64,000 nucleotides of DNA from Bacilli bacterium (GCA_017432825.1 JAFRIJ010000002.1:34170-98169); one strand, 5' to 3'; positions 4,089 to 44,188 are shown, numbered from the stretch's first letter. The notes: generated by a model not told the origin, from the sequence alone. Made by a program: numbers and translations.

Positions 4089-4424
4089 ATGAAAAAAAAG
4101 ATAACTATATTTATTATTATATTAATAATATTATTAACTAGCTTTATATTTTATTTTGCTAAAATTAACAAAGAAAAAACTACATTAACCAAAGTTAAAG
4201 TAGCAGAAGTAGCTCACAGCATATTCTATGCACCTCAATACATTGCAGATTCCCTAGGATACTTTAAGGAAGAAGGATTAGATGTAGAAATAACCCTAAC
4301 ACCAGGAGCAGACGCTGTAATGGCATCAGTTCTATCTAATGAAGTAAACATAGGATTTTGTGGTACAGAAGCAACAATATATGTTGCTAATAAAAAAGAA
4401 AAAGAATTATTTCATAAAATATAA
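4089..4424 (+). pseudogene. N-terminal fragment of an NMT1/SsuA-like ABC substrate-binding protein, interrupted by the recombinase element
   Basis: Signal-anchor MKKKITIFIIILIILL, then VAEVAHSIFYAPQYIADSLGYFKEEGLDVEI, typical of NitT/TauT-family binding proteins. Homology stops at ...EATIYVANKKEK (about 4405). The last 6 codons and the stop come from inserted DNA. Confidence 0.8.
4388..4405. repeat. left copy of an 18-bp perfect direct repeat TAATAAAAAAGAAAAAGA (attL side)
   Basis: Identical to 6935-6952. It sits inside a 33-bp imperfect repeat (4373-4405 vs 6920-6952, 29 of 33 identical) that includes a shared ATATGT core. Confidence 0.9.
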
Positions 4425-5711
4425 AATAATTCCTGAACCAACAAGTAAAAATAAAGAAATTATAAATATAATAACAGGTAAACTAATTATACCAGAATCT
4501 TTCTTATCTATACTATTATAATTTAGTTTTCTATTAGGTTTATATACCCTAACTTTACTTTTTCCTTTAACTTTATCCATATCATGAATATCCCCAATTT
4601 GTCCAACAACAGTATTATTATATGTAGAAACAAGATTATTATCTTCATTTATTTGATATCCTCCAACACCATTTCTACCAACAAATTTACCATATTGATT
4701 ATATATTTCATTAGAATCCCCTACATAGTAAACAGGCAAATCATTATCTAAAGAACCTAATTCATTATCATCATCCCAAAAAGAAGAATCAACACCAGTA
4801 GTTACAGTATCAACCTTATATTCATCATTATGAACACTTATATTATTAGAAAAAGTTTGAGGTTTTACAACGTTAATCTTTTCTTCTTTCTTTTCTAAAA
4901 CAGTATACTTATTTTCATTAGTAAGATTATTCTTAATAATACCCAATTCATCATTTACTTTATTATCTTCTTTTCTTGCAATATCATTACTTAATCTTTC
5001 AAATTTATTTTCTTTATTACTAACATTATCTTCCATATGATTAACCTTCAAATTATTAGTAACAGCATCAGTAAGCATCTTATCTAATTCTTCTCTAGAT
5101 ATATTATATATATCTTTAGATTTAATAGGATCCTTTCTCCATTCACTTAATAATATCTTTTTCTTATCAGTAATAGAAAGAGTATCATTATCACTATAAA
5201 TCTTATCTTCATGTATAGTATACTTCTTAATTTCATCATTGTCTTCTTTAACAATCTGATTATCATTACTATTAACTGAAATATTACTTATTGCATCATC
5301 TAAATTTTGTGTAAGCTGATTATATTTTTCACTATGAGTAATTTTTCCATCTAATCTAAATTTACTAATAAATTCATTAGCAATATCTTCCTCATCCTTA
5401 CTATCAACAATAAAATTAAACTTTACCTTAGTAATATCTAAATTTAAACAATCCTTTTTATATACTTCAGTACCAAAAGCAATCATCAACTCATTAAGAT
5501 TTTCTTTATTGGTAACACCATGAAAAGACAAAAGAATTTGCTTATCATTAATATTAACTACATTATCATTATTAAAAATAACAGTAATATCCCCAAATTC
5601 ACTAGCATTCTTATTATTCCAAAACAAACATCTTTTACCATCTTCAAGTTTTATCATAAAAATATTATACTTTTGATTTTCTTGCTTTACTACATTATAT
5701 TTACTACTCAT
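4407..5711 (-). CDS. hypothetical tail-anchored protein (cargo of the recombinase element)
   Basis: 434 aa with no N-terminal signal, Asn/Lys/Asp-rich, and a single C-terminal TM (ISLPVIIFIISLFLLVGSGIILYF). The stop codon lies 1 nt from the left direct repeat. I recognise no family. Confidence 0.6.
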   Translation of the reverse strand: MSSKYNVVKQENQKYNIFMIKLEDGKRCLFWNNKNASEFGDITVIFNNDNVVNINDKQILLSFHGVTNKENLNELMIAFGTEVYKKDCLNLDITKVKFNFIVDSKDEEDIANEFISKFRLDGKITHSEKYNQLTQNLDDAISNISVNSNDNQIVKEDNDEIKKYTIHEDKIYSDNDTLSITDKKKILLSEWRKDPIKSKDIYNISREELDKMLTDAVTNNLKVNHMEDNVSNKENKFERLSNDIARKEDNKVNDELGIIKNNLTNENKYTVLEKKEEKINVVKPQTFSNNISVHNDEYKVDTVTTGVDSSFWDDDNELGSLDNDLPVYYVGDSNEIYNQYGKFVGRNGVGGYQINEDNNLVSTYNNTVVGQIGDIHDMDKVKGKSKVRVYKPNRKLNYNSIDKKDSGIISLPVIIFIISLFLLVGSGIILYFMK

Positions 5712-5788
5712 AATATCACCTACAAATAATTACAATCTATAGTATAACATTTAAAAATAAATATGTAAAACAAATTTTAACAATTATT

Positions 5789-6871
5789 TTAATTATTGAC
5801 ATTAATTATAACTTTAAAAAAACAAGAATAAGAATATATATATATTTCTTCAACATTATACCCATTGCACATAGAATCTAACAAATCCTCTTTTATACTA
5901 TTACACCCATTACAATAATAATAACTATAAATATTATTCTTATATTTTTTTACTTCATATCTATAACTCTTATTATGAATTCCACATATTACATTATATT
6001 TTCTTTTATATCTTTTTTTACTAGAAATAATATTATTAGCCATATCCCATACACCTTCATCTATAATAAAAGGAATGTTTCTATCCTTATATATAATCCA
6101 TTTACTATTATCTAAATTAATTCTCTTTCCACTTTTATAATTAATAACCCTACTCTTTCTACCACAATAATAACCTTTATATTTATAATTAGTAAGAATC
6201 CTTTTAATAGAAGAACTATTAAATCTTTTATCATATTTATTATTAATAATTAAAGATAGCTCTTTATAATTATATTTATTAGTTATAAACAAACTAAATA
6301 TATCTCTAACTATCACTGCTTCATCTAAATCAATAACTAACTTTCCCTTATCTTTTCTATATCCTAAAATATTGTTATTTCCTAAAACAACACCTCTATT
6401 AATAGACTCACTTAAACCAAACTTAACAGATTCACTTAACTTTCTAATCTCATCTTGAGCAATACTTGCCATTAAAGTTAATCTAAATTCACTATCACTA
6501 TTTAAAGTATAAATATTATCATTAATAAAATATACCCCAACTCCCTTACTCTTTAAAATATCAGTATATTTAATACTATCAATAGTATTTCTAGCGAATC
6601 TAGATACACTCTTAGTAAGAATTAAATCAAACTTATTATTAATACCATCATCTATCATTCTAAGAAAATTACTTCTATCTTTTACACTCTTACCACTAAT
6701 ACCCTCATCTATATATCCAGGAAGATATATCCAATTACTTACATTATTAATATAATTAGAGAAAAAATATTTTTGATTAACAATAGAACTATATTGACTA
6801 TCATTATCTGTACTAACTCTCGCATAATATGTAACTCTTAATTTTAAATCAAATATATTTACATTATCCAT
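5789..6871 (-). CDS. serine recombinase (short large-serine-recombinase type, 360 aa)
   Basis: Resolvase catalytic domain YYARVSTDNDSQ...LILTKSVSRFARN, recombinase-domain region (GYRKDKGKLVIDLDEAVIVRDIF) and a Cys-containing zinc-ribbon remnant (CGIH...CNGC). It ends soon after the ribbon with no long coiled-coil. Confidence 0.85.
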   Translation of the reverse strand: MDNVNIFDLKLRVTYYARVSTDNDSQYSSIVNQKYFFSNYINNVSNWIYLPGYIDEGISGKSVKDRSNFLRMIDDGINNKFDLILTKSVSRFARNTIDSIKYTDILKSKGVGVYFINDNIYTLNSDSEFRLTLMASIAQDEIRKLSESVKFGLSESINRGVVLGNNNILGYRKDKGKLVIDLDEAVIVRDIFSLFITNKYNYKELSLIINNKYDKRFNSSSIKRILTNYKYKGYYCGRKSRVINYKSGKRINLDNSKWIIYKDRNIPFIIDEGVWDMANNIISSKKRYKRKYNVICGIHNKSYRYEVKKYKNNIYSYYYCNGCNSIKEDLLDSMCNGYNVEEIYIYSYSCFFKVIINVNN

Positions 6872-6905
6872 ACTACTTATTATGAATAAAAATATTAATT
6901 ATTAC

Positions 6906-6949
6906 TTTTCTTTTTTATTAACAACATATGTATATAATAAAAAAGAAAA
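6906..6949. repeat. att-like site: 15-bp perfect inverted repeat around a 14-bp spacer
   Basis: TTTTCTTTTTTATTA (6906-6920) and its reverse complement TAATAAAAAAGAAAA (6935-6949) flank ACAACATATGTATA, which contains CATATG. The site lies 35 bp upstream of the recombinase start. Confidence 0.7.
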
Positions 6950-7637
6950 AGATTACCCAATAACATTTGCAGGACTAACTAAAAGAGATGGTTCTTTTAT
7001 TGTATCAAGGAAAAAAATAGATAACTTTACATTAAATGACTTAAAAGGAAAATATATAATTGGTGGAAGAATCGGTGGTATGCCAGAAATGACATTAGAA
7101 TGGACGTTAAAAGAAAATAATATAGACCCTAAAAAAGATTTAACTATTGACACCTCAATAGCATTTTCTGCTATGGAAGGATCATTTATAGGAGGAACAG
7201 GAGATTTCGTATCACTATTTGAACCAAATGCAACAGAAGTAGAAAAACAAAACCTAGGCTATGTAGTAGCATACTTAGGAGAATTAGGAGGAGAAGTTCC
7301 ATATACAGCATACAATGCAAGAAAAAGCTATATAAAAAACAATCCAAAAGTAATAGAATCATTCTCTAAAGCAATAAACAAAGCACTAAAATATGTAAAA
7401 GAACATAAAGCTAAAGACATCGCTAATAACATAATAGATTATTTCCCAGATACAAACATAGAAGATTTAACAAAAATAATAGATAGATACAAAAAAGGAG
7501 ATGCCTGGAAAGATAATATAAATATAAATGAAAAAGAATGGATACATATTCAAGAAATAGTGAAAGAAGCTGGAGAACTAGAATCATTTGTTCCTTACAA
7601 AAATCTAATATATACAGATTATTTTACCAATGAATAA
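6927..7637 (+). pseudogene. C-terminal fragment of the interrupted NMT1/SsuA-like ABC substrate-binding protein
   Basis: From YVYNKKEKDYPITFAGLTKRDGSFIV onward it resembles the NitT/TauT binding-protein core. The tracked ATG at 6882 lies in element DNA. It is in phase with the 4089 fragment across the repeat. Confidence 0.8.
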
Positions 7638-8373
7638 CATATTAACTATAAATAACCTATCCAAAAAATATTACACTAAGGAAAAAGAAATATTAGCAAT
7701 TGATAATATTTCTTTAAATATAGAAGAAAATTCTATAACAGCAATAGTAGGTCCTTCTGGATGTGGAAAATCTACATTACTAAATATAATAGGAAAACTA
7801 GATAAGCAAACAAAAGGAACTATAAAATATAATAAAGATAAAATTGGCTATATGTTTCAAACAGATTGTCTATTTCCCTATTTAACAATACTAGATAATT
7901 GTTTAATAGGATTAAAAATACAACATAAACTTACAAAAGAAAACATAGATTACGTAAAAAAATTACTATCCGATTACGGTTTAAAAGATTTTATAAATAG
8001 TTATCCAAAAAACTTATCTGGAGGTATGAAACAAAGAGTTGCTCTAATAAGAACCTTAGCAACAAAACCAGATATATTATTATTAGATGAACCCTTCTCT
8101 GCCCTAGACTATCAAACAAGATTATCTGTATCAGATGATGTATATAAAATAATAAAGAAAGAAAATAAAACTACTATTATTATTACCCATGACATAGCAG
8201 AAGCTATATCTATGGCAGAAAAAGTAATAATATTAACTAAAAGACCATCTAAAATAAAGAAAATATATAAAATAGAATTAACAAACGCTACTAGCCCAAT
8301 AAATAATAGAACATGTAAAGAATTTAACGACTACTATAAAACTATCTGGCAAAGTATTGATCATAATGTCTAA
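7630..8373 (+). CDS. ABC transporter ATP-binding protein (NitT/TauT family)
   Basis: Walker A GPSGCGKST, signature LSGGMKQRV, Walker B ILLLDEPFSALD. Overlaps the binding-protein stop. Confidence 0.92.
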   Translation: MNNILTINNLSKKYYTKEKEILAIDNISLNIEENSITAIVGPSGCGKSTLLNIIGKLDKQTKGTIKYNKDKIGYMFQTDCLFPYLTILDNCLIGLKIQHKLTKENIDYVKKLLSDYGLKDFINSYPKNLSGGMKQRVALIRTLATKPDILLLDEPFSALDYQTRLSVSDDVYKIIKKENKTTIIITHDIAEAISMAEKVIILTKRPSKIKKIYKIELTNATSPINNRTCKEFNDYYKTIWQSIDHNV

Positions 8374-9154
8374 AGAATATATTGATTATTTAAAAAGAGA
8401 AAAAATTAACAAATTATTAGTTCTATTATTTCAAATATTATTAATAACATCATTATTAATAATATGGCAATATCTAGCAGATAAAAAATTAATTAATACC
8501 TTTATAACATCATCACCAAAGAAAGTTATAAATACTATTATAAAATTATATAAAACAAATAATTTATTTAATCACATATGGATTACTACATATGAAACAT
8601 TAATAAGTTTCTCACTAGGAACAATAATAGGATTATTAATTGCTATAATACTTTGGTATAACAAATTCATAGCAAAAGTAATTGATCCATATTTAACAGT
8701 ATTAAACTCATTACCTAAAGTATCCTTAGGACCAATATTAATTATTTGGATAGGCCCCAATATTAAATCAATAATAACTATGTCTATATTAGTATCCGTA
8801 ATAATAACCATTATAAATATTTATAATGGCTTTAATAATACAGATAAAAACAAAATAAACTTACTTAAATCATTTAACGCTACAAAATACCAAATACTAA
8901 CAAACCTAATAATACCATCTAATTATAAAATAATAGTAAATAGTCTAAAAATAAATATAAGTATGTCTTTAATAGGAGTAATAATGGGAGAATTACTAGT
9001 ATCAAAAAAAGGTATAGGTTATTTAATAATGTACGGTTCTCAAGTATTTAACTTAGATTTAGTTATATCTGGAATAATAATACTAATGTTAGTATCTTAT
9101 ATTATGTATATAATAATAAACTATATAGAAAAAATACTAATCAAATCTGATTAG
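8366..9154 (+). CDS. ABC transporter permease (NitT/TauT family)
   Basis: Multi-span hydrophobic protein directly after the ATPase. ATG at 8366 overlaps the ATPase stop by 8 nt. The tracked start at 8357 is TTG. Confidence 0.85.
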   Translation: MSKEYIDYLKREKINKLLVLLFQILLITSLLIIWQYLADKKLINTFITSSPKKVINTIIKLYKTNNLFNHIWITTYETLISFSLGTIIGLLIAIILWYNKFIAKVIDPYLTVLNSLPKVSLGPILIIWIGPNIKSIITMSILVSVIITIINIYNGFNNTDKNKINLLKSFNATKYQILTNLIIPSNYKIIVNSLKINISMSLIGVIMGELLVSKKGIGYLIMYGSQVFNLDLVISGIIILMLVSYIMYIIINYIEKILIKSD

Positions 9155-16228: not shown

Positions 16229-16986
16229 ACCTCTAACATCTCCGTTTCAATATCTTGCTTAGCAATAACAATCTTAGAAACTTTTTGTTTATTAGATTCT
16301 AATCTTTCTATTAAAGAATCATATGCCAAATCATAAGTATTATTTTCTTCAGATAAATGTGCTAAAACAATACACTTAGTTTTATTACCTATATAACTAG
16401 ATAAATACCTAGAAGAATCATAATTAGATAAATGCCCTTTATCGCTTAAAATTCTTTGTCTTAACCTAAAAGGATATCTACCATTATTTAACATCTCAAT
16501 ATCATGATTAGATTCCATTACATATAACTCTCTATTAGATAGTATTTCATTATATTTGTTATTAATATAGCCAGTATCAGTAATATAAACAATACTCTTA
16601 CCATCACCACCAATAACATATCCAACACTACCAGGAGCATCATGAGAAGTTTTAATAACATCTATAGATAAATCTCTAAAAGTAAAACTATTATTCTTAA
16701 TAACTTTATAATTAGTAATATAATCTAAATCACCAAGCATCTCTTCAGTTACAAAAATTAAAGGATTAAATTTATTAACAAAAACTTTTAACCCCTTAAT
16801 ATGATCAGAATGTGTATGCGTTATAAATATAGCATCTATTTCATTACCTTTAATCCCCATATTCCTTAACTTATCTACTATATATTTACAACAATTACCA
16901 GCATCAATTAATATTTTAGTATTACCACATTCAATATATGTAGTATTACCTTTACTACCAGAAGATAAAATTTTTATTCTCATCAA
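16225..16986 (-). CDS. MBL-fold metallo-hydrolase (YycJ/WalJ-like)
   Basis: HTHSDH motif and 253 aa. Position near rlmH and dnaB matches Bacillus yycJ synteny. Confidence 0.8.
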   Translation of the reverse strand: MMRIKILSSGSKGNTTYIECGNTKILIDAGNCCKYIVDKLRNMGIKGNEIDAIFITHTHSDHIKGLKVFVNKFNPLIFVTEEMLGDLDYITNYKVIKNNSFTFRDLSIDVIKTSHDAPGSVGYVIGGDGKSIVYITDTGYINNKYNEILSNRELYVMESNHDIEMLNNGRYPFRLRQRILSDKGHLSNYDSSRYLSSYIGNKTKCIVLAHLSEENNTYDLAYDSLIERLESNKQKVSKIVIAKQDIETEMLEV

Positions 16987-18515
16987 TACAACGATAAGGG
17001 ATCAAAAGGACTACCACTCATACCACCACGAGAAGGATCTCCTCTAGTAGTAGCAAAGTGTAAATGAGTGCCACTATAAGGACTATAACTAGATGGAACA
17101 GGATATACCTCTCCAGTATTACCCATTGTACCTATTTTTTGTCCCCTAGCAACTACCTGACCAACTTTAACATAAATACTAGCTAAATGCATATATGTAG
17201 TATAATAACCAATATTATGGTTTATTATTATATAATTACCACGTCTACCATTACAACCCAAATAACCTGCTACACATCCACCAGTAGCTGCAACAACCGT
17301 ACCATTATTTGCAGCATAAACAGCTGAACCATAACCAGGCCCATATATATCAATAGCAGGATGCATAGTTCCCCAACGATAACCATAATAAGTAGTTATA
17401 GTATATGGAGTATCCGTAGGCCAAGCCCAATAACTTAAATCAGCAATATGAGGAACAACTTTATCACCTTTAACAACAACTTGATCAACAGCAGGCTTTA
17501 ATTCAGTAGAATTTAAAGTAATAGTATCAGACAATTGACCATTAATATATAAATATTCACGACTAACTCTATATAATCCCTTTTCTCCAGGAGTTTCCAC
17601 ATATTCAGTTCCTCTTATCATAGATTCGTCATACTTAACAACAACACCATATTTTTTTTCTTCATCTTTAACTGAATTAACTTCAATAGCAATATCCATA
17701 ACAGGATTAATAAGTCCAATATTAACTTCCTGTCCAGCATAAAGCAATGTATTAGCACTATTAAAACTAGAATTAGCTAACAAAAACTCCTGCACATTTA
17801 ACTTATTAGCAAGCGCTACCGACTCAACAGTATCACCATCTTTAACAGTATAACTAGCTTGTTTCTCAGTAGTACCAAATAATAAATACTTAGCAAGCTC
17901 TCCTGAATCACAAAATATTTCATTATCAATAGAAATATATCCCTTCTTATATGTAACATTCTGATTTAAATCAATACTCTTTATAATACTTCCAGTATCA
18001 ACAATTTCTTTTTGTGTACTATTAATATAATCATTATATTCCTTATCAGAAACAAAAGATTTAATTAAAGAAACCAAAGCATCATCAAATATTTCTTTTT
18101 TAGTAGTATATATATTTTTAGTTTCATATTTATCATCATTCTTAGCAGATACAGTTATAATAATACCCTTAATAGTAAATTGCTTTAAATTAACCATTTT
18201 ATTATAAATATAATCATTAGAATCAAGCTTATTACTATACGTAACAACCTTCTTAATAGATACACCATTAGGCATATAAACCTTATCCACCTTATATTTT
18301 TTCATAACAGAAACTTCTTTATCATTTATATATTTTTCAAAAGAATCTTTATCTTTAATAGTACCTATAACCTCACCATCAACATATACATTATATACTT
18401 CATTAGGTACTTTATTATTATAATTAGTAAATCCCAATCCAAATGCTAGTAACCCAACTAGAATTATTATAATATAATAAGAAATTCTAAATTTACTATT
18501 TTCCACTAGTACCAC
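16983..18515 (-). CDS. M23 family peptidase with LysM domain
   Basis: N-terminal TM, LysM (YTVKDGDTVESVALANKLNV) and M23 motifs HPAIDI and GTHLHF. The start is uncertain: GTG at 18515, or GTG at 18506 behind an AAGGTGG RBS. Confidence 0.85.
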   Translation of the reverse strand: MVLVENSKFRISYYIIIILVGLLAFGLGFTNYNNKVPNEVYNVYVDGEVIGTIKDKDSFEKYINDKEVSVMKKYKVDKVYMPNGVSIKKVVTYSNKLDSNDYIYNKMVNLKQFTIKGIIITVSAKNDDKYETKNIYTTKKEIFDDALVSLIKSFVSDKEYNDYINSTQKEIVDTGSIIKSIDLNQNVTYKKGYISIDNEIFCDSGELAKYLLFGTTEKQASYTVKDGDTVESVALANKLNVQEFLLANSSFNSANTLLYAGQEVNIGLINPVMDIAIEVNSVKDEEKKYGVVVKYDESMIRGTEYVETPGEKGLYRVSREYLYINGQLSDTITLNSTELKPAVDQVVVKGDKVVPHIADLSYWAWPTDTPYTITTYYGYRWGTMHPAIDIYGPGYGSAVYAANNGTVVAATGGCVAGYLGCNGRRGNYIIINHNIGYYTTYMHLASIYVKVGQVVARGQKIGTMGNTGEVYPVPSSYSPYSGTHLHFATTRGDPSRGGMSGSPFDPLSLY

Positions 18516-28038: not shown

Positions 28039-28396
28039 AATAATCAATCTTATAAGCCACGTTCTGTACCTAAAAGGCGGTAAACATTTATCTATAGTAA
28101 ACTATCCAATCAGAAATTCTAATTCTTTCTTCATGATTCCTCTACCAAAATTTGAGTTTCTTACTTGTGGGGTTTACCTCGTTTCACTATTTATATTTCT
28201 ATAAATATTCGTCACTGTGGCACTTTTATATTAATTAATTCATAGTATAATACCTTAGAATCAATTAAAGCCGTAAGCATAAGCTCCCTTAGGTTATTTT
28301 TTCCCTAAGCACAAACACTACTATCATCACAGATAGTGCAAGCGTGGACTTTCCTCTATATAACAAATTATACAGCGTTTACCCAGATTAATTATT
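28039..28396 (-). ncRNA. rnpB: RNase P RNA, type B
   Basis: The minus strand contains GAGGAAAGTCCACGCTTGCAC (CR-I), AAAGTGCCACAGTGACGAA, GGTAAACCCC, AAACTCAAATTTTGGTAGAGGAA and ACAGAACGTGGCTTA (CR-V). These are co-linear with B. subtilis rnpB as I recall it. P1 pairs AATAATTAATCT with AGATTGATTATT. Confidence 0.92.
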
Positions 28397-35292: not shown

Positions 35293-36333
35293 TTAAAATT
35301 TTAAAAATTTATTATTAGATGTATCATTACCTTCATTAGATATCCTTCTATATAAACCTAGCTTACCTAAGAAAGGAAGTAATATTCTAGAATTATCTTC
35401 TCTATCATTCATTGGAGGTAAAGCATAGAAAATCTTTGTATTAGCCTCTCTACCAAATAATGATATATCTTTTTCGTTAAGTAAACAATCATTAAGTACA
35501 ACCTTATAATCTCTTAATTTAATAAAAGAATTAGGTTCTAATCTAGCAATCTTATTTATAGACAAAGTAGAAGGCTCTATTAAATATATAATATCATCAC
35601 ATAAACTCTTAGCATCTTCTTCAGGAAAATCATTTAAATCAACTAAAATAATATTAACATCCCTATACTTATCTATACTATTTCTTAATTCACTAGCAGT
35701 AACAGAAATCATACTCTTATCATTAAAGAATAAAAAATCAGACTTATTTACCTCTAAAGAAATAACAGAATAATTCTTCTCTAATTGACGTTTAATCATA
35801 TATATCAAACTAGTAGCCCCAGCATGATTAGTAAAATTCTTAAACCCAATTACATTAACCTTACTAGAAGACACATTACCTTGCATAACTTGATTACTAT
35901 TATTAACATTCATAGAGTTAACATTAGCATTAGTATTTACATTATTACTAACATTATCCATATTCTGATATCTAACTACATCCCTATACTGATTAGGATT
36001 ATTATATAAATATATTAGTTCATTCTCATTACGAGCAAAATTATATATACCCATACTAATCAATTTAGAAATATAAGCATTATTAATAACAGGATCATCA
36101 TTTAATAATAATATAATTTTACTAACATCAAGTCCAATAGAAAGTTTTTGAATATTATTTATATCTCTGTAATTTTGTATAGAAGTAATATCCAAAAACA
36201 TTCTATTGAAAAAGAAATTAGAAAATGTTTGTACTAATTCATCAGCAGAAAATTCACCACTAATAGACTTAATAATATCAACATTCAAATTAGTAAACTT
36301 ATCCCTATTTAAATTAGATACTATAACATTCAT
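35293..36333 (-). CDS. TadZ/CpaE-like protein (receiver-like N-domain plus degenerate ParA/MinD ATPase)
   Basis: 346 aa. The N-terminal region has a response-regulator-like pattern ending in ISMGIYNFA. The C-terminal half is ParA-like with a degenerate P-loop (FTNHAGATSL). It lies in the Tad gene neighbourhood. Confidence 0.55.
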   Translation of the reverse strand: MNVIVSNLNRDKFTNLNVDIIKSISGEFSADELVQTFSNFFFNRMFLDITSIQNYRDINNIQKLSIGLDVSKIILLLNDDPVINNAYISKLISMGIYNFARNENELIYLYNNPNQYRDVVRYQNMDNVSNNVNTNANVNSMNVNNSNQVMQGNVSSSKVNVIGFKNFTNHAGATSLIYMIKRQLEKNYSVISLEVNKSDFLFFNDKSMISVTASELRNSIDKYRDVNIILVDLNDFPEEDAKSLCDDIIYLIEPSTLSINKIARLEPNSFIKLRDYKVVLNDCLLNEKDISLFGREANTKIFYALPPMNDREDNSRILLPFLGKLGLYRRISNEGNDTSNNKFLKF

Positions 36334-36345
36334 ACAAACACCTCC

Positions 36346-36777
36346 TTAATTTGTTTTAATTACAACTGTCTCTCCACTGGCAGTGATAGGCAAGTCCAAG
36401 ACACTTAATATAGGAAAATTAATTACATGGTATACCTTTACTAAATAATAAGGTTCATCTGAACTAGGATTCTCATTAATAATACATATTCCTAAATCAG
36501 AAAAATTAGTATCTCCTCCAGGACAAGCAGATTGAAAAGTTAAATTTCCTTCAAATCTTGTAGTATAAGGAACAGAATGCAAATAATCCTCCAACTTTTG
36601 ATGAACAATAATACCATTATCTCCATCATATTGATATTGCTCCAATATATTTATAACGTTATTCTTTACTCTATATATCTTAGCAAAATTTAAAGCTACT
36701 CCAATAAATGCAACATATATTATAAAAAATACCATAAATAATTTTAACAAAAAACTACCGCCAAACGCCTCTTGCAT
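36346..36777 (-). CDS. TadE-like pseudopilin
   Basis: Start at ATG 36777 (MQEAFGGSFLLKLFMVFFIIYVAFIGVAL), 8 nt after AGGTGG. Has an N-terminal hydrophobic helix. Directly downstream of the pilin ORF. Confidence 0.55.
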   Translation of the reverse strand: MQEAFGGSFLLKLFMVFFIIYVAFIGVALNFAKIYRVKNNVINILEQYQYDGDNGIIVHQKLEDYLHSVPYTTRFEGNLTFQSACPGGDTNFSDLGICIINENPSSDEPYYLVKVYHVINFPILSVLDLPITASGETVVIKTN

Positions 36778-36818
36778 AATCATCACCACCTAATTCTAAC
36801 TATTCTATAATAAATAAA

Positions 36819-36998
36819 CTAAGGAGTAGGATTAATGTTATCGATACCTTGATTTGTTTTTTGTGTCATTCCATCCCAAGTACCATTAATATACTCTTTC
36901 ATTTTTGGAAAAAGGAAAACAGTCAAAATACCTAATATTGCAATAACTGCAATAATAACTACAACAGTCATGCTTAATTCACCTGTAGCTTCTTTCAT
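36819..36998 (-). CDS. Flp-type pilin candidate (59 aa, absent from the ORF track)
   Basis: ATG 36996-36998 follows an AAGGAGGTG RBS. Translation is MKEATGELSMTVVVIIAVIAILGILTVFLFPKMKEYINGTWDGMTQKTNQGIDNINPTP, a short polar leader ending in Gly followed by a hydrophobic helix of about 22 aa. It sits between the TadC-like and TadE-like genes. Confidence 0.6.
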   Translation of the reverse strand: MKEATGELSMTVVVIIAVIAILGILTVFLFPKMKEYINGTWDGMTQKTNQGIDNINPTP

Positions 36999-37041
36999 TC
37001 AAAACTCACCTCCTTAATATCAAAATATATTTTTTATCAAA

Positions 37042-37833
37042 TTACATAGCAGCAGCAAGCATCATAAACATTGATACTAATAGTAACAACATTCCCCCGC
37101 CACCTGTACAAACTAGCATTATCATAGTCATGCTTTCCATTCTATGAAGTCTATTTTTATACTTTTGTTCTCTTGCTTTTTCTTGTAAACTAGATACACT
37201 TTTAGAGAAAGATAATAGCTGTTGATGTTTTCTTTCTTGTTCTCCAAGACCTAATCTATATAATAATCTCATCATTCTCATAGAATCCCTAACAGGATAT
37301 CTATTAGCAAAATCAGTATAAGGTTGAATACTAGAGTCACCAGCTTCAATCTTAGCAACTAATTCTTTAAGTCCAGGTTTAAATACTGCAGGAGCATCAT
37401 CTATACTTCTAGCAAGAGCTACTGGAACTGTATAATGTTGAATTAATACTTCTAAACCTTTTAAGTAATAAGGAAGTAAAGAATCAACCTCTAATAAATG
37501 CTTTTTATAATAACTTCTTAAACTTATATAATCATATTTAAATACTACAAACGCAGCAATTAAAGATATAACTACATTTAAAAAGTTTAAATTAGTAATA
37601 AACACAAATAACATAAGAGCTAAAATAAGAAAAGCATTTCTAAACCTAGTCATATATATCTTTTGAGGATCAACTACTCTGTCACCATATTTTGCATACA
37701 ATAAAAACTCATAATCACTTTCTTTTAAAGAATTAAATAAATCTTTATTGTCTTCTACAAATCTACCAGTATTAAATCTACCAGTATATATAAACATAAA
37801 AATAACTATAACACCAACTATAAATATTTCCAT
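37042..37833 (-). CDS. TadC-like type II secretion system F-family membrane protein
   Basis: Start moved to ATG 37833 (MEIFIVGVIVIF), parallel to the TadB-like N-terminus MLEIFIICV. It has an N-terminal TM, a central pair of hydrophobic spans and a C-terminal TM. Adjacent to the TadB/TadA-like genes. Confidence 0.7.
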   Translation of the reverse strand: MEIFIVGVIVIFMFIYTGRFNTGRFVEDNKDLFNSLKESDYEFLLYAKYGDRVVDPQKIYMTRFRNAFLILALMLFVFITNLNFLNVVISLIAAFVVFKYDYISLRSYYKKHLLEVDSLLPYYLKGLEVLIQHYTVPVALARSIDDAPAVFKPGLKELVAKIEAGDSSIQPYTDFANRYPVRDSMRMMRLLYRLGLGEQERKHQQLLSFSKSVSSLQEKAREQKYKNRLHRMESMTMIMLVCTGGGGMLLLLVSMFMMLAAAM

Positions 37834-37834
37834 A

Positions 37835-38731
37835 CTATTCAGCCCCCACATTCTCATTATAGAATCTTTCACCTTTTACTAAGAAAAAAGTATTTATAAA
37901 AACTAATCCATGCAAGGCAATTACAATAAATATATTATCTAGCATTGAAATATAAGTATCTATTTGAACAAGAAATTGAAGTAATATTACTATTCCATAC
38001 AAAGCAAATCCAAACAATAAAAACTGTCTATGGAAATTAGCTCTATCCATTCTATCTCTATATACACCTTCAACTAATATATCTATATCTGATAACATAT
38101 TTTCAAAAGTCTCAGCAGTATCTTTAGCACCTTCTTTAGTTACTTGTAAAAATAATTGATGCATATTCTTTACCATAAAGAAAGGATATTTAGCGTTCAT
38201 ATATTCAATAGATGCATATACATCTCCTTTTTCATAAGATAAAGCTATCATTGTTTTTACATCAGATAATACCGGATCTTCTAATATACCAGACTCAACT
38301 ACACCTTCTAATGATTTAACAAAAGCTTGAGTAGTAGCAAATTCCATAATAGTATTTGTAACATATACTTGAATTTGTTCAAATATAAACTCACTATATT
38401 GTCTTTTAGACCTTAAATATGTTAAATAAGGAATAAAAGCAATAGCAATAATACCATATACTATAGCCCAAATTAAACTATAAAAGTATAAATAACCTAC
38501 TCCAGCAGCAAAACCACCAATTAGTACAATCTGAGTAACATATTGCTTAGTAGTATAATCTATTCCCAAAGATTTAATCTTTGATCTCATTTCTTTATAA
38601 GAATAAGGTGCATATTTATCATATAATTCAGTTGCTTTAGCAGATACGAATTTATATACACCATCACCCGTACTTGCTCTATAAGTAACTATAAAGATAA
38701 TTATCACACATATTATAAAAATCTCTAGCAC
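37835..38731 (-). CDS. TadB-like type II secretion system F-family membrane protein
   Basis: 298 aa with the same topology as its neighbour. Directly downstream of the secretion ATPase. Confidence 0.7.
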   Translation of the reverse strand: MLEIFIICVIIIFIVTYRASTGDGVYKFVSAKATELYDKYAPYSYKEMRSKIKSLGIDYTTKQYVTQIVLIGGFAAGVGYLYFYSLIWAIVYGIIAIAFIPYLTYLRSKRQYSEFIFEQIQVYVTNTIMEFATTQAFVKSLEGVVESGILEDPVLSDVKTMIALSYEKGDVYASIEYMNAKYPFFMVKNMHQLFLQVTKEGAKDTAETFENMLSDIDILVEGVYRDRMDRANFHRQFLLFGFALYGIVILLQFLVQIDTYISMLDNIFIVIALHGLVFINTFFLVKGERFYNENVGAE

Positions 38732-38752
38732 ATAACCACCTCTATTCTTTTA

Positions 38753-40222
38753 CTAAACATTACTACCATTAACATTAGTATATAATATATTACTATTTTT
38801 TTCAACAGAATTCTGCAACTTACTATATTGATTATTATTAACATTATAACTAGAATTTACATTACTAGTAACAGTAGAATTATTAATCTTACCAATGTTA
38901 TCACCAACATTATTAATATTTAAATTACTAATATTGCTATTATTAACACCTCTAGATTCATTAATAATTTCATAATTAAGCATAGGATTAATACTACTAT
39001 TTATAGAATTATTTTGTAAAACAGTTGTATTAGCTACATTATTACTTAATACTTGATTATTATTTTGAACAATATTTTCATTATTATTTTGAGCAATATT
39101 AGATTGCTTATCCAAAATATTTACTTTTTCATTATTATAATTTAAAGAATTATCATTTGCCTCATGAAAACTCTCTTTAACAAGTATATCAGGTTGCATT
39201 ATAACACCCTGACTTTCTAAATATCCCAATAAATATTTAGAAGGATTTTGTAAAGTAAATTTACCATCAGGAGTTCTTTTATATAAAATTTTATATTTAG
39301 GATTATTATCTTCATCTACATAAAATTCTACTACCTCTGCTACTTCTCTTTTAAATCTTTGTAATTCTTTACTATAATAGCCCCTAATATGTACACCAAG
39401 TTGTACATATCTATGTATACTTCTTAAAAACTGATCCATATCTATACTAGACTCTAATAAACTATATAGACGACTTGGTATAGATTCAGCCTTTTCAGCA
39501 TGTATTGTTGATAAAATATTATGACCAGAAGAAATAGAATCACGAACAGCCATAACTGCCTCAGCACTTCTAACTTCAGATAACAATATCCATCTAGGAT
39601 TTTGTCTCATACAAGTAACAAGTACATCAGCATAACTAGCTATATTATTAGTTTTCATTGCAACTATATCTCTTTGAGGAAATATCTTATCTAAGTGTAA
39701 TTCCAAAGTATCTTCAATTGTAATTATTTTTTCATCAGGCTTAGTATGAGCAGCTAAGTATTTAATAAACTCAGTTTTACCACTACCGGTTTCACCACTT
39801 ACCAAAATATTACAATGTCCTTCAACACACTTTAGTAAAAAATCATGAATATCTAATCTAATATAATCTTCTTTTAATATTTTGTCTTTTTCAAGTCTTA
39901 TCTTAGCAGGAGTCTTACGAATAAGAACAGCTATACCATTTCTTGCAATAGAATCATGAACAAAGTTCATACGAAGTTCATCTGATTCAGCATCCAAGAA
40001 AGGATTAGCCATATTAAATGATTTACCCATAGTATTAGCACACTGAAAAGCCATTTTTTCCATAAAAGCATTATTTACAGCAGGATTTTCTACTCTAAAT
40101 ACACCTTTAGATAAAGTCTTTAACCAAACTTGACCACCATTACTATAAGATATATCTGTAACATCATCATTATCCAAATAAACTTGAATTGGCCCAAAAT
40201 CAACTTGAGAAAATTCATTCAT
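38753..40222 (-). CDS. TadA/CpaF-type secretion ATPase with an Asn-rich C-terminal extension
   Basis: Walker A SGETGSGKTE, Walker B-like RWILLSEVR (Asp box IITIEDTLEL upstream) and His-box region SGHNILSTIHA. Start at ATG 40222 behind GGAGG. The last roughly 135 aa are low-complexity N/S/V. Confidence 0.85.
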   Translation of the reverse strand: MNEFSQVDFGPIQVYLDNDDVTDISYSNGGQVWLKTLSKGVFRVENPAVNNAFMEKMAFQCANTMGKSFNMANPFLDAESDELRMNFVHDSIARNGIAVLIRKTPAKIRLEKDKILKEDYIRLDIHDFLLKCVEGHCNILVSGETGSGKTEFIKYLAAHTKPDEKIITIEDTLELHLDKIFPQRDIVAMKTNNIASYADVLVTCMRQNPRWILLSEVRSAEAVMAVRDSISSGHNILSTIHAEKAESIPSRLYSLLESSIDMDQFLRSIHRYVQLGVHIRGYYSKELQRFKREVAEVVEFYVDEDNNPKYKILYKRTPDGKFTLQNPSKYLLGYLESQGVIMQPDILVKESFHEANDNSLNYNNEKVNILDKQSNIAQNNNENIVQNNNQVLSNNVANTTVLQNNSINSSINPMLNYEIINESRGVNNSNISNLNINNVGDNIGKINNSTVTSNVNSSYNVNNNQYSKLQNSVEKNSNILYTNVNGSNV

Positions 40223-40241
40223 GAATTTCACCTCCTATTGA

Positions 40242-41090
40242 TTAATTATTCTTTTTTGTATCTTCATTTTTCTTATTTTCTTCAACTACTTCTTTAGTAG
40301 AAGATAAAATTTCATCAACAGAAACCATCTTAGTCTTATCATTAATAAATTTTTGAATATCTTCACTACTTACCATAACAGAATCTTTATCAGTAAGTTC
40401 TTGAGTATTAGGAACTAATATAAGTTCAACACTATATTGACTAGCTAAATAAATTGCTTTTCTAAATAATAAATGCATATCTTCAGGTAAAGCAAATAAC
40501 ATATAAGCAGGAGTTCTAGCTTCATCAGTATTATCAAATACATGTTGTCCAGAACTATCTTTAACATCTAATATTTCAACATTACTAATAAATTTACCAA
40601 ACATAATAGTACCATCATCATTAGTACCCTTAAAATAGATATTAATATAATCCTTAGGCATCATACTATTAGCATAAGTAGTATCCATATTAACCTTATA
40701 ATTAATAACTGTATATCCATCTTTAACATTAACAAATGATGAATTAGGTAAATTCTTTTCATCTATAACTAAATCAGTATAGAACAAACTACCTTGAGCA
40801 ATCATAGTATTATAATTAGAATACTTTCCAGCAATATCATTACCATTTCTATAGTAACTACCAACTAAGAAAGATGCAGGAACATTCATATAACTAATCA
40901 TATCAACAGTAATCTTCGTTCTAGGTTGAATAGTTTGATTAGCATATGGTACTCTAGTTAAAGCAACCTTTTGATTAATCCTAAAATTATAACCCAACCA
41001 CAAAACCACCACACACAAAACAACCCCTAAAATAGTAACTGTGTTCTTATTTCCTAAGAACTTCTTCAACGAACTAGATAAATTATTCAT
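40242..41090 (-). CDS. CpaB/RcpC-like Flp pilus assembly protein (SAF domain)
   Basis: 282 aa. N-terminal TM (TILGVVLCVVVLWLGY), then VALTRVPYANQTIQPRTKITVDMI, typical of the CpaB SAF domain. Confidence 0.65.
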   Translation of the reverse strand: MNNLSSSLKKFLGNKNTVTILGVVLCVVVLWLGYNFRINQKVALTRVPYANQTIQPRTKITVDMISYMNVPASFLVGSYYRNGNDIAGKYSNYNTMIAQGSLFYTDLVIDEKNLPNSSFVNVKDGYTVINYKVNMDTTYANSMMPKDYINIYFKGTNDDGTIMFGKFISNVEILDVKDSSGQHVFDNTDEARTPAYMLFALPEDMHLLFRKAIYLASQYSVELILVPNTQELTDKDSVMVSSEDIQKFINDKTKMVSVDEILSSTKEVVEENKKNEDTKKNN

Positions 41091-41115
41091 TTTTTCACCC
41101 TTTCTTACTTTTTAT

Positions 41116-41796
41116 CTATCTACAATCATCACCATTACATTCTTCATCATCAGAATCATACTCATCATCTTCTTCTTCAACTATTTTTTGAACATCAGTT
41201 GAAATATTATTAAATTCAAGTATTTCTTCTGAAGAAGCAGAACTGCCTTCAGAAGAATTATCTAAAATCAAATCATCTTCAGCAACAACATCTTTAGAAT
41301 CTTCAACTACTTCAAAACTATTACTCCTTAATTTTAATATTTTATTTTGTTCTAAAATACCAGTCAAAGAATTAGTAATTTTTAATGATTGATAATCAGA
41401 AACAACGCCATAATCATCAGTTATTCCTTCAATTACAACTGATGCTTTGGGAGGAGATTCAATAATATCATAAAATTTTATCGTATAATTCTTAGCATCG
41501 CCACCAACAGTAGCAACAAACCTTCTAGTAAAATTTTCAACAAATTTAGTTTCAGACATTTTTAGTTTTCCAGAACCACACATATCATTTAAACCATTTT
41601 GACTTGTCCTTCTTACTCTTTGGTCTATTCTATAACATGTCATATCAACAGATTCAATCATAGCAGCTTTCATAGCTTCTTTTAAATTATAATATTCAGA
41701 ATCATTATTAATAGTAATAGATTGAAGCATTACAATTAATACTAATCCTATACTACCAAAAAGCAACATTCCAAAACCATAATAAGCATATTTCAA
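41116..41796 (-). CDS. hypothetical membrane-anchored protein with an acidic C-terminal tail (possible minor pilin)
   Basis: 226 aa. N-terminal MKYAYYGFGMLLFGSIGLVLIVML. The C-terminal 70 aa are very rich in D/E/S and end in DDEECNGDDCR. Confidence 0.45.
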   Translation of the reverse strand: MKYAYYGFGMLLFGSIGLVLIVMLQSITINNDSEYYNLKEAMKAAMIESVDMTCYRIDQRVRRTSQNGLNDMCGSGKLKMSETKFVENFTRRFVATVGGDAKNYTIKFYDIIESPPKASVVIEGITDDYGVVSDYQSLKITNSLTGILEQNKILKLRSNSFEVVEDSKDVVAEDDLILDNSSEGSSASSEEILEFNNISTDVQKIVEEEDDEYDSDDEECNGDDCR

Positions 41797-41808
41797 TTAC
41801 CACACCTC

Positions 41809-44187
41809 CTATTTATCGCACGATTCATTAAATTCACCAATGTTACAATAACTATTTTGATTATTTATAGTCTTAAATCCATTACCACTATTTATAAAAT
41901 TATTTGAACCATTGTCATTAATACCTGTCCAACTTGTATACACTTTATCATTAGAACTTATTTTCAAAATATCACTATCGGATAATTCAGCTTTATACAC
42001 TATTTTCCCATTAGGATATAAAGCAAAAGTATTATTCATTCTACTTTTATTATTAGAATTATCCCACCATGTCACCCAATTAGTAGGAATTTTCTTAGGA
42101 AAGGGATCAGAAACATCAATTGTCCTATAAGAAACATCGTATTTAAATTCATTGACATCAATTCCACACTCCGCTTTATAATAAAATTTAAACCATCCAG
42201 TCATACTTAAATTAGATGTAGCTATATTATATGGAAAAGATTTATTAATATCATAATTCAACGGCGTATAATATTTATTTCCACCAGAGACAGAATAACC
42301 TTTTTTCCCCTTTTCATAAGAAACTTCACCATTGCTATTAAAGAAAGCTTCTTTCATCTCCACGTTTGTATCATTGGCAATAAAAACGCCAACTTTTTTA
42401 CCTTTATTATCGCTTGAAGTATATTTATGGTACTCTATATCAGAATCAGGAATAATATTTAATTCGGTTTTATAATCATTTTTAGAGTAATTATTTGAAT
42501 CCTTAGTAACAACATTAAGAGCAAGTAAAGATTCTTTATCTTTCATCTTATCCAACAATTCATTTTTTAATTTATCCCTTACTACATTTTCAATACTTAC
42601 CTTCTCACTTGATGAACTAGCAATCTTACCACTACCAGACTGATAATAATATGGATTATCTAAAGAATCGTGATCTGCAAAATACCATTCTAAATTAGAA
42701 ATATAATTTGTAGCATCATTACCAGAATTAACTAAACCAAAGCCACCACCTGAATAAGTATTTTTTAAATCGAAAGCTCCAAATTTAAATTTAACATTTT
42801 CTATCAATATAACACTTACATAAATAGTATTTTGTCCACTACCAATTTGCAAAGGATGACAACTACATCCATTAAAATTAACTACATAATTCTTATCATC
42901 AGTTGCCTGATCATCAGTTAAACTAGATTTACAAGTTTTGGTAACTGGATCCGATTCATTATGCTCGCCATAAACATTTTTTAGAACAGAATCAGAAACA
43001 ATCGGACACACTTCATGTTGAATTACTCTTTGAGTAACATTTATTTTTCTTGTTTCTTTGTGATTTATAGTAATCTTATTATTTGCATTTTTTTCTTCAG
43101 CTACTAACATATTCTGTGCAATTTCTCCATCTACCTTACATTCAACTTCATCTTTAGCAGAATTATAACAAATTGGCTTATACATTTTAGTATTGTAATA
43201 ATCAACACTAGAATTTTTTATTTCTTTAAAATCAGCAGTTATACTTAAAGTAATTTTATTAATATTATTTCTCTTAGTATATAAATATAATTTTAAATTA
43301 TCTCCTGAGTTCAATGAAATATTCATATCTTCTTCAGTACAATCTTGAGTAGATCCAGAAGTATAACGACAAATTTGAACTCCCTTCCAGTTATTTGCAA
43401 TCGAAATATTAATAGCTTTACTTTCGTTGTTCTTAATTATAATATCATTTGTTTTATAATACCCCGATGTATTACACGTTGTATCATTGGATCCGGATGC
43501 AATAAAATCAAATACAGCATTTAAAGTATTTAACTCAAAATTTATTTTACTACTTTTTGTACTGCTTACATTACCATTAGCGTTTTTAAAATCAGTATAT
43601 GCTTTCCACGCATCTTCTAATATTTTTTTTGTACGTGCATAATCACTTAGATTGTACAATTCATTATTTGCATCTTTACTATTATTAACATAATATGGAT
43701 AAGGAGCATAATTTCTTAAATAAACCCACAATGAAGTTTGAGCATTAAACCATGATTGTTTTTTTCCACCTTTAGAAGTGTTAGTATCAGCTAATCCTCT
43801 ATTTATAACAAATCCCGCAATTATACTGCAATCACCATCACTTTTTAGTTCTCCAGTTCCACCAACTTTATACTTACAGTTACTATTACTACGCCACTCA
43901 GAATCTTCTTGATATTTTTTACTTTCTTTATCAAACTTATTACGACGAGTTGCACAGTATGCAAGAGTATCTTTTTTACCATTATTTACCCATTTACGAT
44001 GGTCATGAGAAGAATTACAATTAGTATAACTATTTGATAAATATGTGAACTTATCCCTATTGTAACAAATTTCATCACTACTACCATAATGAGTAAAAGA
44101 TATAGCGTTAACATTAAAACAAAAAGAGAAAAATAAAATATAAAATATAAATAATAAACTAATTATTCTGTTTTTCACAATATTCAC
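41809..44187 (-). CDS. large secreted Cys-rich protein of unknown function
   Basis: 792 aa. Sec signal (FSFCFNVNA/ISF) and about 20 or more Cys. Translationally coupled to the upstream 218-aa gene (1-nt gap). Confidence 0.6.
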   Translation of the reverse strand: MNIVKNRIISLLFIFYILFFSFCFNVNAISFTHYGSSDEICYNRDKFTYLSNSYTNCNSSHDHRKWVNNGKKDTLAYCATRRNKFDKESKKYQEDSEWRSNSNCKYKVGGTGELKSDGDCSIIAGFVINRGLADTNTSKGGKKQSWFNAQTSLWVYLRNYAPYPYYVNNSKDANNELYNLSDYARTKKILEDAWKAYTDFKNANGNVSSTKSSKINFELNTLNAVFDFIASGSNDTTCNTSGYYKTNDIIIKNNESKAINISIANNWKGVQICRYTSGSTQDCTEEDMNISLNSGDNLKLYLYTKRNNINKITLSITADFKEIKNSSVDYYNTKMYKPICYNSAKDEVECKVDGEIAQNMLVAEEKNANNKITINHKETRKINVTQRVIQHEVCPIVSDSVLKNVYGEHNESDPVTKTCKSSLTDDQATDDKNYVVNFNGCSCHPLQIGSGQNTIYVSVILIENVKFKFGAFDLKNTYSGGGFGLVNSGNDATNYISNLEWYFADHDSLDNPYYYQSGSGKIASSSSEKVSIENVVRDKLKNELLDKMKDKESLLALNVVTKDSNNYSKNDYKTELNIIPDSDIEYHKYTSSDNKGKKVGVFIANDTNVEMKEAFFNSNGEVSYEKGKKGYSVSGGNKYYTPLNYDINKSFPYNIATSNLSMTGWFKFYYKAECGIDVNEFKYDVSYRTIDVSDPFPKKIPTNWVTWWDNSNNKSRMNNTFALYPNGKIVYKAELSDSDILKISSNDKVYTSWTGINDNGSNNFINSGNGFKTINNQNSYCNIGEFNESCDK

Positions 44188-44188
44188 C

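Follow-up and report, generated by a model that had tools for sequence, protein, structure and literature searches.

What has happened to the binding-protein gene of this ATP-binding cassette (ABC) importer, and can the gene be made whole again? The question is raised by a 64,000-nucleotide stretch of DNA from a Bacilli bacterium (GCA_017432825.1, JAFRIJ010000002.1:34170-98169; hereafter the window), in which a gene for a substrate-binding protein (SBP) lies in two pieces separated by 2,547 bp that carry a serine recombinase gene. We consider it likely that this insert is an integrated, non-phage gene-intervening element able to excise, and that it is a minimal member of a family residing at the Tyr98 codon of the SBP gene in many uncultured low-GC gut Bacilli. 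Comparison with related sequences strongly supports the structural interpretation (element, junctions and join) and suggests that the element can cut itself out and rebuild the gene.

The junctions, the crossover and the rebuilt gene

An earlier reading of the window, made from its sequence only, had described two co-linear pieces of an SBP gene around a 2,547-bp insert holding only a serine recombinase gene and one open reading frame (ORF) of unknown kind, and had listed the repeats at the junctions. All of these features were located in the 64 kb where that reading had placed them. Those on which the argument depends are the following:

4089-4379, plus strand: 5' fragment of the SBP gene (NMT1/THI5-type, NitT/TauT family), codons 1-97, with an N-terminal hydrophobic signal or anchor segment
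4382-4424, plus strand: element-encoded tail, ..Y-VANKKEKELFHKI-stop, which ends the ORF of the truncated 5' fragment
4382-6928: whole intervening element, 2,547 bp from TA to TA, GC content 22.3% (window 26.2%)
4407-5711, minus strand: ORF2, 434 amino acids (aa), membrane-anchored, with a C-terminal transmembrane helix
5789-6871, minus strand: serine recombinase, 360 aa; Pfam Resolvase 1.6e-25 (residues 15-161) and Recombinase PF07508 9e-11 (residues 183-284)
6927-7637, plus strand: 3' fragment of the SBP gene, codons 98-333 and stop
4350-4411: predicted attL, with the B arm up to 4379, TA at 4380-4381 and the element-derived P' arm at 4382-4411, containing TAATAAAAAAGAAAA
6897-6958: predicted attR, with the element-derived P arm at 6897-6926, containing TTTTCTTTTTTATTA, TA at 6927-6928 and the B' arm at 6929-6958

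Both fragments match the Pfam NMT1 profile, the first at profile positions 5-55 and the second at 51-212, and the insert between them holds two ORFs and no others, each lying on the minus strand. The identical element was found at the identical site on four other metagenome contigs. Joining the fragments at the dyad centre yields a 333-aa protein with thousands of homologs, the best full-length ones being 330-335 aa long and 75-76% identical. The joined protein is gap-free against 13 homologs (12 of them intact), and Y98-V99-Y100 is invariant. The earlier proposal that a precise join restores an intact gene is thus upheld, with no residue missing or extra at the join. The 3' fragment has neither a start codon nor an export signal of its own; an ATG at 6882, inside the element, lengthens its ORF to 251 aa, and this form makes up a cluster of 10 sequences (P0007). 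A split protein made of two polypeptides was rejected because the 3' fragment lacks an export signal.

The direct repeat at the junctions measures 33 nt (4373-4405 and 6920-6952, 29/33 identical, spacing 2547) and contains the perfect 18-mer TAATAAAAAAGAAAAAGA (4388-4405 and 6935-6952). At the right junction, a perfect 15-nt inverted repeat (6906-6920 and 6935-6949), formed between the P arm and the B' arm, flanks a 14-nt spacer centred on CATATG. When up to two mismatches are allowed, the 18-mer has five copies in the window where 0.20 would be expected, and the two junctions account for three of them (two direct, one inverted). The sequence-only reading had these repeats right; it missed that the termini of the element are themselves mutually inverted repeats (4379-4411 versus 6897-6929, 33 nt, 88%), so that an excised circle would carry a 62-bp near-palindromic attP. 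This predicted attP, TTTTCTTTTTTATTAACAACATATGTTGCTAATAAAAAAGAAAAAGAATT, has 26/30 complementary positions per arm and is the most symmetric among all elements compared. Taken whole, the site on the gene side is no palindrome (about 9/30); the predicted attB is GGTACAGAAGCAACAATATATGTATATAATAAAAAAGAAAAAGATTACCC, with ..GCAACAATA-TA-TGTATATAAT.. around the crossover.

Where, within these repeats, would the strands be exchanged? The left copy reads Y-V-A, its Ala coming from the element and replacing the invariant Y100, and the right copy reads T-T-Y for the native T-I-Y, its second Thr being element-derived; from the window alone, the exchange is therefore confined to ATATGT (4379-4384). For a finer mapping, attL and attR of 16 non-redundant elements were aligned. 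In L008, L009 and L100, attL reads ..ACAAT(A/C)-TA-GGTTGTTG.. and attR reads ..CAACAACC-TA-TGT.., so that TA is all that the two have in common and mismatches flank it on both sides; L010 agrees, its arms having diverged. A shared TA between mismatches is the mark that serine recombinases leave by cutting with a 2-bp stagger. The central dinucleotide 5'-TA-3' stands at the crossover point in 16/16 elements and, in the window, forms the first two bases of the Tyr98 codon (4380-4381 and 6927-6928). Judged by this comparison, the crossover is a 2-bp TA at the centre of a dyad-symmetric attP, and does not lie in the 18-bp repeat. The 18-bp identity instead reflects mimicry, the P' half-site of the element resembling the B' half-site of the gene, and the likeness of the element-encoded tail to the native YVYNKKEKD comes from the same half-site similarity. 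Moreover, the bases flanking TA covary in a way that keeps the palindrome (ACA-TA-TGT versus ACC-TA-GGT), and the P and P' arms of one element match each other better than arms taken across elements (permutation p=0.0003).

An empty site was found for a sister type of element, that of L100 and L101, whose recombinase is 58% identical to the window's. L095 carries an intact, empty gene with flanks 95.2% (642 bp) and 97.8% (2,206 bp) identical to those of the occupied L100/L101, and these identities assign the three loci to the same species. Over 82 nt, the L095 empty site equals the join predicted from the attL and attR of L100, save one single-nucleotide polymorphism. A related genome with an uninterrupted gene matching the join, which the earlier reading had proposed to look for, was thus found for the sister element and not for the window's species. 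The predicted attP junction was absent from viral contigs.

A recombinase family held at one codon

Related loci were drawn from species-representative genomes, ENA/Logan assemblies and one metagenome collection. Relatives of the window's recombinase are very numerous; the best 120 measure 292-389 aa (nearly all 344-389) and share 56-80% identity with it, and many of them come from 'Bacilli bacterium' metagenome-assembled genomes (MAGs). At every one of the loci drawn that has a short recombinase (L001-L011, L085-L094, L096-L104), the same SBP gene is split at the same codon, as it also is by three longer large serine recombinases (LSRs) at 50-54% identity (L013, L105, L106). In all ~25 loci the recombinase is antisense to the SBP gene, and its 5' end adjoins the 3' fragment of that gene. 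Long LSRs at 44-57% identity, in other parts of these genomes and in phage contigs, occupy different sites. Among 2.9 million viral contigs there is no member of the short family, the best match being 49% identical and the matches being long LSRs, and no published description of the family was found in the literature searched.

Most of the related elements, which span 2.5-8 kb, are larger than that of the window. The core of most of them consists of an M23 peptidase, which matches phage peptidase/endolysin-type families at the domain level only, the recombinase, and one or two ORF2-family proteins. Cargo that varies between elements lies upstream of the M23 gene. It comprises, among others, an M3 peptidase, an acyltransferase, an ADP-ribosyltransferase exoenzyme domain and a DUF3592 protein; by eye only, an ORF resembling a histidine kinase and a secreted protein of 1,075 aa bearing an HExxH motif were recognised as well. 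The cargo-bearing ORFs lie as follows, in element coordinates:

L009: 310-1095
L006: 740-3967
L008: 128-1885 and 2527-3597
L007: 104-1954 and 2579-3583

The cargo of related elements also includes a weak, sub-threshold nucleoside 2-deoxyribosyltransferase-like match and, by eye only, a histidine-kinase/receiver hybrid; in the 1,075-aa secreted protein, repeated lectin-like units were seen by eye beside the HExxH motif. The stripped two-gene form is restricted to the window, its sister L096 and L098, the window having lost the M23 gene and the small ORF of most relatives. The earlier description of a tiny two-gene element therefore suits the window's lineage and one other, but not the remaining relatives, with their usual M23 peptidase and cargo.

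Neither phage structural, replication or lysis modules nor occurrence in viruses was found for the window's element, and a prophage remnant in the window was rejected because phage genes are missing. ORF2 has no Pfam and no PHROG match, and its AlphaFold2 model (mean confidence, pLDDT, 72.5) has no PDB fold match below E=1e-3. Its homologs number only 40, all of them unnamed, and are placed downstream of the recombinase in related elements; ORF2 belongs to an element-specific, fast-evolving family.

Other LSR elements, unrelated or distantly related to the window's, break the same SBP gene at other codons: near aa 201 in L042, near aa 205 in L085-L089, beside a 568-aa LSR accompanied by sortase, RhuM and HD genes, and near aa 147 in L011, beside a 520-aa LSR. 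The SBP gene seems to attract LSR insertions repeatedly.

The recombinase itself has an LSR-type catalytic domain with a serine nucleophile and, after a long E-helix, the PF07508 domain. The predicted catalytic residue is S20 in YARVSTD, a motif that is invariant in 26 family members (YARVS(20)TD); the SRFARN region and the recombinase domain are also conserved. The protein matches PHROG integrase at 2.3e-71, and its best PDB sequence match is the LSR-type catalytic domain 3g13. With the AlphaFold2 model (mean pLDDT 78.6), the best Foldseek matches were the SPbeta, phiC31, Bxb1 and LI integrases (E 2e-16 to 2e-7). Sequence comparison also yields the short att sites with a 2-bp crossover centred in a dyad-symmetric attP that are expected of an LSR. 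Two further LSR features were not found, namely a non-palindromic central dinucleotide that sets polarity (TA stands in 16/16 elements) and a coiled-coil inserted in the zinc domain. An IS607-family transposon, in which a MerR-like DNA-binding domain is N-terminal, the catalytic domain is C-terminal and tnpB usually accompanies the gene, was ruled out: here the catalytic domain is N-terminal, there is no tnpB and a single target is fixed.

Of the four zinc ligands (CxxH...CxxC), three do not vary in the family (C296, H299 and C320) and the fourth, C323, is almost invariant; the region is modelled as beta-strands. The PF13408 zinc ribbon, a domain that is cut short here, was undetected in the window's protein and was listed for one of the 120 listed relatives. 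Past residue 290, DSSP assigns beta-strands and one 8-residue helix to the model, and the last 70 residues are free of long helices. Compared to sister LSRs of 550-565 aa, the short proteins end ~40 residues past the second Cys pair, so that ~190 C-terminal residues are missing, including the helical coiled-coil. By alignment and model, the enzyme is an LSR truncated before its coiled-coil. The coiled-coil in the zinc domain of LSRs mediates attP/attB selectivity and control by the recombination directionality factor (RDF). A Listeria innocua integrase from which the coiled-coil was deleted (Int deltaCC) is 'promiscuous', recombining attP x attB and attL x attR alike, and works intramolecularly but poorly intermolecularly (PMC5499577).

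What could drive the recombinase gene differs within the family. In eight related loci (L005, L006, L008, L009, L010, L097, L100 and L101, which represent seven distinct elements, L100 and L101 being near-identical), the motif (G/A)CATATT-N12-14-CATA(A/T)T, with a T-rich spacer, lies 7-25 nt upstream of the recombinase start, between the stop of the M23 peptidase gene and that start. The motif may be a promoter. Its likeness to the consensus of the mother-cell sigma factors sigma-E/K is a lead; it also fits a sigma-A-like reading, TTAGCA-17-CATAAT. The mother-cell sigma factors have been described in terms of a '-35 ATA, shared -10' (PMC3789822). CATATT-N12-14-CATAWT does not occur in the window (0 versus 0.66 expected), because the spacer between M23 gene and recombinase has been deleted there. 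The minimal elements of the window, L096 and L098 have their recombinase start just 56 bp from the crossover (window 6872-6926). CATAAT precedes the ATG by 7 nt, a Shine-Dalgarno sequence is missing, and the recombinase mRNA of these elements may be leaderless. Circularisation would be predicted to alter the promoter region upstream of the recombinase, since the 3' end of ORF2 would then lie across attP.

Selection on the split gene and the weighing of explanations

Given these parts, a course of events can be proposed. In the integrated state the gene would consist of a 97-codon head and a 236-codon body, and the importer would lack its binding protein because the body has no start codon or export signal. 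The recombinase would bind attL and attR, cleave both at the central TA (4380-4381 and 6927-6928) and exchange the strands, giving an intact 333-codon gene and a 2,547-bp circle with the 62-bp palindromic attP. Excision would proceed without a directionality factor, an independence to be expected from the missing coiled-coil by analogy with Int deltaCC, and the intramolecular attL x attR reaction would be favoured over intermolecular re-integration. Poor re-integration combined with RDF-free excision would fit a vertically inherited, single-site element.

If the gene is rebuilt in this way, how has selection treated its halves? The window was compared with L096, its closest relative, which shares its synteny and its two-gene element, using the Nei-Gojobori method for the ratio of nonsynonymous to synonymous divergence (dN/dS) and for the synonymous divergence (dS) itself:

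SBP 5' half: dN/dS 0.10, dS 0.68
SBP 3' half: dN/dS 0.12, dS 0.66
GAPDH: dN/dS 0.11, dS 0.48
ATPase: dN/dS 0.05, dS 0.69
Recombinase: dN/dS 0.23, dS 0.60
ORF2: dN/dS 0.31, dS 0.50

Both gene halves are under purifying selection, like GAPDH, and both are open wherever they were recovered among the occupied loci (about 20). The dS of the element genes (0.50-0.60) falls inside the range of the host genes (0.40-0.69), and other locus pairs behave alike. A Mantel test of the proportion of synonymous differences (pS) in the SBP gene against that in the recombinase, over 16 loci, gave r=0.67 (p=1e-4); in these data the L085 values are unreliable, as that locus has a truncated gene and other LSRs. L001-L096, L008-L100 and L013-L105 are reciprocal nearest neighbours in both data sets. 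On the simplest reading of these sequences, the element has long been resident with its hosts, and the interrupted gene is still under selection. Long-term selection on a split gene implies either that the gene is rebuilt often enough to matter or that intact alleles circulate within each species, and by either route recombination at these sites would be active or recently active. The copy in the window may be active now, and the apparently missing binding protein of this importer in these MAGs is probably not a real loss.

Several observations weigh against an element that still excises. Neither an attB nor an attP junction, the products of excision, was found for the species to which the window belongs; all of its contigs that were found are occupied, and among the homologs found no intact allele exceeded 76% identity to the window's join. 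The exact joined proteins predicted for nine occupied loci were absent from a collection of 15 billion proteins. The L096 recombinase gene carries a frameshift within the zinc-ribbon region, with a called product of 305 aa and the remainder in another frame (L096:1425-2600), and the P arm of L096 is degenerate, the TTTTCTTTTTT motif being lost. The frameshift is either true decay or a homopolymer assembly error; together with the degenerate arm it implies that copies of the element can decay. In the L085 lineage the SBP gene is further disrupted by another LSR element, which implies that this gene is dispensable in at least some hosts. As for the enzyme, the behaviour forecast for a protein without coiled-coil rests on one engineered, inefficient integrase, and the self-complementary central TA cannot alone set polarity, that is, choose between deletion and inversion. 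Despite this TA, a single orientation is found at all loci, and the deletion product exists.

The occupied contigs of the window's species, the frameshift and decayed arm of L096 and the loss of the M23 gene and small ORF from the window's element would all be expected of a dead remnant, immobile in an SBP gene that has become a permanent pseudogene. Such an end point is improbable: the SBP halves have dN/dS values of 0.10-0.12, equal to that of GAPDH, and neither stops nor frameshifts in ~20 occupied loci, while in the window the recombinase ORF is intact (dN/dS 0.23) and the attP arms, at 26/30 each, are the most symmetric of all. The 33-nt terminal inverted repeat (88%) and the self-complementary TA raise a further thought, that the recombinase flips the 2.5-kb segment instead of deleting it. 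We hold this to be highly improbable, and the inversion switch was rejected, since orientation is constant at ~25 loci and inversion would not restore the ORF (the translated left junction would read ..ATIYVVNKKEK-stop); a same-species empty site also exists.

What would excision by a living element be for? A purely selfish integrative element would repeatedly excise and re-invade a conserved attB, with gene loss as collateral, and the halves would look selected because insertions are young and intact alleles circulate. The variable, weapon-like or accessory cargo of relatives (ADP-ribosyltransferase exoenzyme domain, M3 peptidase, acyltransferase and, by eye, the histidine-kinase-like ORF) suits such a life, as do the coexistence of occupied and empty alleles in one species, the intact genes in many related species and the hits of other LSR elements on this gene at other codons. 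We find it possible but doubtful: the equal synonymous divergence of element and host and the matching nearest neighbours fit long residence better than frequent transfer, each locus has one copy, none was found outside the SBP gene, the element carries no transfer genes, and an LSR without coiled-coil should, by analogy with Int deltaCC, integrate poorly between molecules. The same vertical co-divergence and purifying selection are also the pattern expected where the germ line keeps an element and the recombinase is turned on only in a terminally differentiated cell, e.g., the mother cell, as for skin/sigK, SPbeta/spsM and gin/gerE. The conserved CATATT-N12-14-CATAWT of relatives, resembling mother-cell sigma-E/K-type promoters, speaks for this too, as does the mixture of sporulating and non-sporulating species in related novel Bacilli orders (PMC10868615). 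It nevertheless appears unlikely here, given that an ABC binding-protein gene has no known sporulation link, that the window ORFs examined included no sporulation gene, and that the motif is missing from the window's copy and open to a sigma-A-like reading. Finally, excision could serve as an ON switch for uptake and not just as the escape route of a selfish element. A role of this kind is plausible from the sequences, and we advance, tentatively, a host-retained, RDF-independent DNA switch that has been kept over many speciations and excises in some cells or in some cell state, turning uptake on.

An excising gene-intervening element, which remains our preferred account of the insert, would have several consequences. 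If it is active, intervening elements are no longer confined to genes of sporulation and heterocyst formation but also reach a transporter gene, in gut bacteria that are uncultured and have reduced genomes. If the switch reading is true as well, a metabolic gene undergoes programmed rearrangement outside sporulation or heterocyst differentiation, by means of a compact 360-aa recombinase, defined ~60-bp sites and a symmetric TA crossover. One codon is held by one element family across many species. The coiled-coil model of how serine integrases gain directionality could also be tested on this natural family, as the motif is missing and the enzyme is still under selection, and the palindromic crossover dinucleotide poses the question of how polarity is set. 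Moreover, a 360-aa recombinase with readable att sites, accompanied by 16 natural att/enzyme variants, could serve genome engineering.

Genomic setting and known systems

The split gene heads an NMT1-type ABC importer operon, which GAPDH and suf genes adjoin and whose other members are complete:

7630-8373, plus strand: ABC ATPase, intact (Pfam ABC_tran 7.6e-33)
8357-9154, plus strand: permease, intact (Pfam BPD_transp_1 5.2e-22)

Pyrimidine precursors of thiamine are among the candidate ligands of NMT1/THI5-type proteins. Rfam matches in the 64 kb were limited to a class B RNase P RNA (28048-28390, minus strand, 276.7 bits) and one tRNA (45468-45541, plus strand), and no riboswitch was matched upstream of the transporter operon. 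The low GC content (26%; 26.2%) and the class B RNase P RNA indicate a low-GC Bacillota host. At this GC content, promoter and terminator scans are uninformative: the sigma-70 scan of the window returned 44 promoter-like sites against 50 expected, and the terminator scan returned none. The window ORFs examined for sporulation genes, among which there were none, included ten unassigned proteins scanned against Pfam.

Elsewhere in the window, a TraG/VirD4-type coupling protein of type IV secretion systems (PF02534, 2.6e-56; 57714-59822, minus strand) lies near the window end and may belong to a conjugative element. A T2SSE-family secretion ATPase (38753-40231) stands amid membrane and secreted ORFs at 35293-44845 (minus strand), a cluster that resembles a Tad/Com-type pilus or secretion cluster and includes several large ORFs without Pfam match. 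The host's own LysM-G5-M23 peptidase (16983-18515, minus strand) is distinct from the small M23 peptidases of related elements.

How does the element compare with systems already described? At the level of the crossover, small serine resolvases come to mind, since res site I of Tn3 and gamma-delta is likewise dyad-symmetric and is crossed at a self-complementary central dinucleotide. These resolvases are ~185 aa long, end in a helix-turn-helix and need accessory sites to impose deletion, whereas the window's protein has an LSR recombinase domain and zinc ribbon, with no accessory sites evident. Phage regulatory switches, or active lysogeny, as in the Listeria comK prophage, provide the precedent of a mobile element that sits in a non-sporulation gene and switches this gene on by excising. 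The elements in those cases are entire prophages, which are maintained as episomes and integrate again; the present 2.5-kb circle would have neither replication nor phage genes.

Int deltaCC resembles the window's protein in its composition (catalytic domain, recombinase domain and zinc ribbon, without coiled-coil) and is the sole experimental guide to such an enzyme. It is a laboratory internal deletion and is inefficient (PMC5499577). The window's protein is instead a natural C-terminal truncation in which the last part of the zinc domain is also gone, and it is kept under purifying selection in many species.

The earlier reading had likened the insert to skin in sigK. This likeness stands insofar as a coding sequence is interrupted and a precise join restores the full ORF; it fails at the target, which is not a known sporulation gene, and a need confined to a terminally differentiated cell, typical of targets in this class, was not found. 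Skin with SpoIVCA in sigK and SPbeta with SprA in spsM (Bacillus subtilis; skinCd in Clostridioides difficile) share with the present element an LSR-type enzyme, vertical inheritance and a host gene that, though split, has remained functional through evolution. They are prophages or prophage-like, tens of kb long, with full-length LSRs and RDFs (Skr-type or SprB), and their excision is restricted to the mother cell. The present element has no phage genes, no coiled-coil and no identified RDF.

The gin element in gerE of Bacillus cereus, with GirC and GirX, comes closer (PMC5595907). It too is a non-phage intervening element: a serine recombinase lies beside one junction, the att site is an inverted repeat whose shared core is short, and precise excision reconstitutes the ORF (PMC5595907). 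Gin, with 31 genes, three of them for recombinases, depends on a directionality factor; the gene that it splits encodes a sporulation regulator, and excision takes place during sporulation (PMC5595907), whereas the present element has two genes in 2.5 kb, one truncated recombinase and a transporter target. In its workings, the nearest described system is thus that of the gene-intervening elements (skin, SPbeta), especially the non-phage gin, from which the element of the window differs in its size, its target gene, the lack of an identified RDF, its truncated recombinase and its palindromic crossover.

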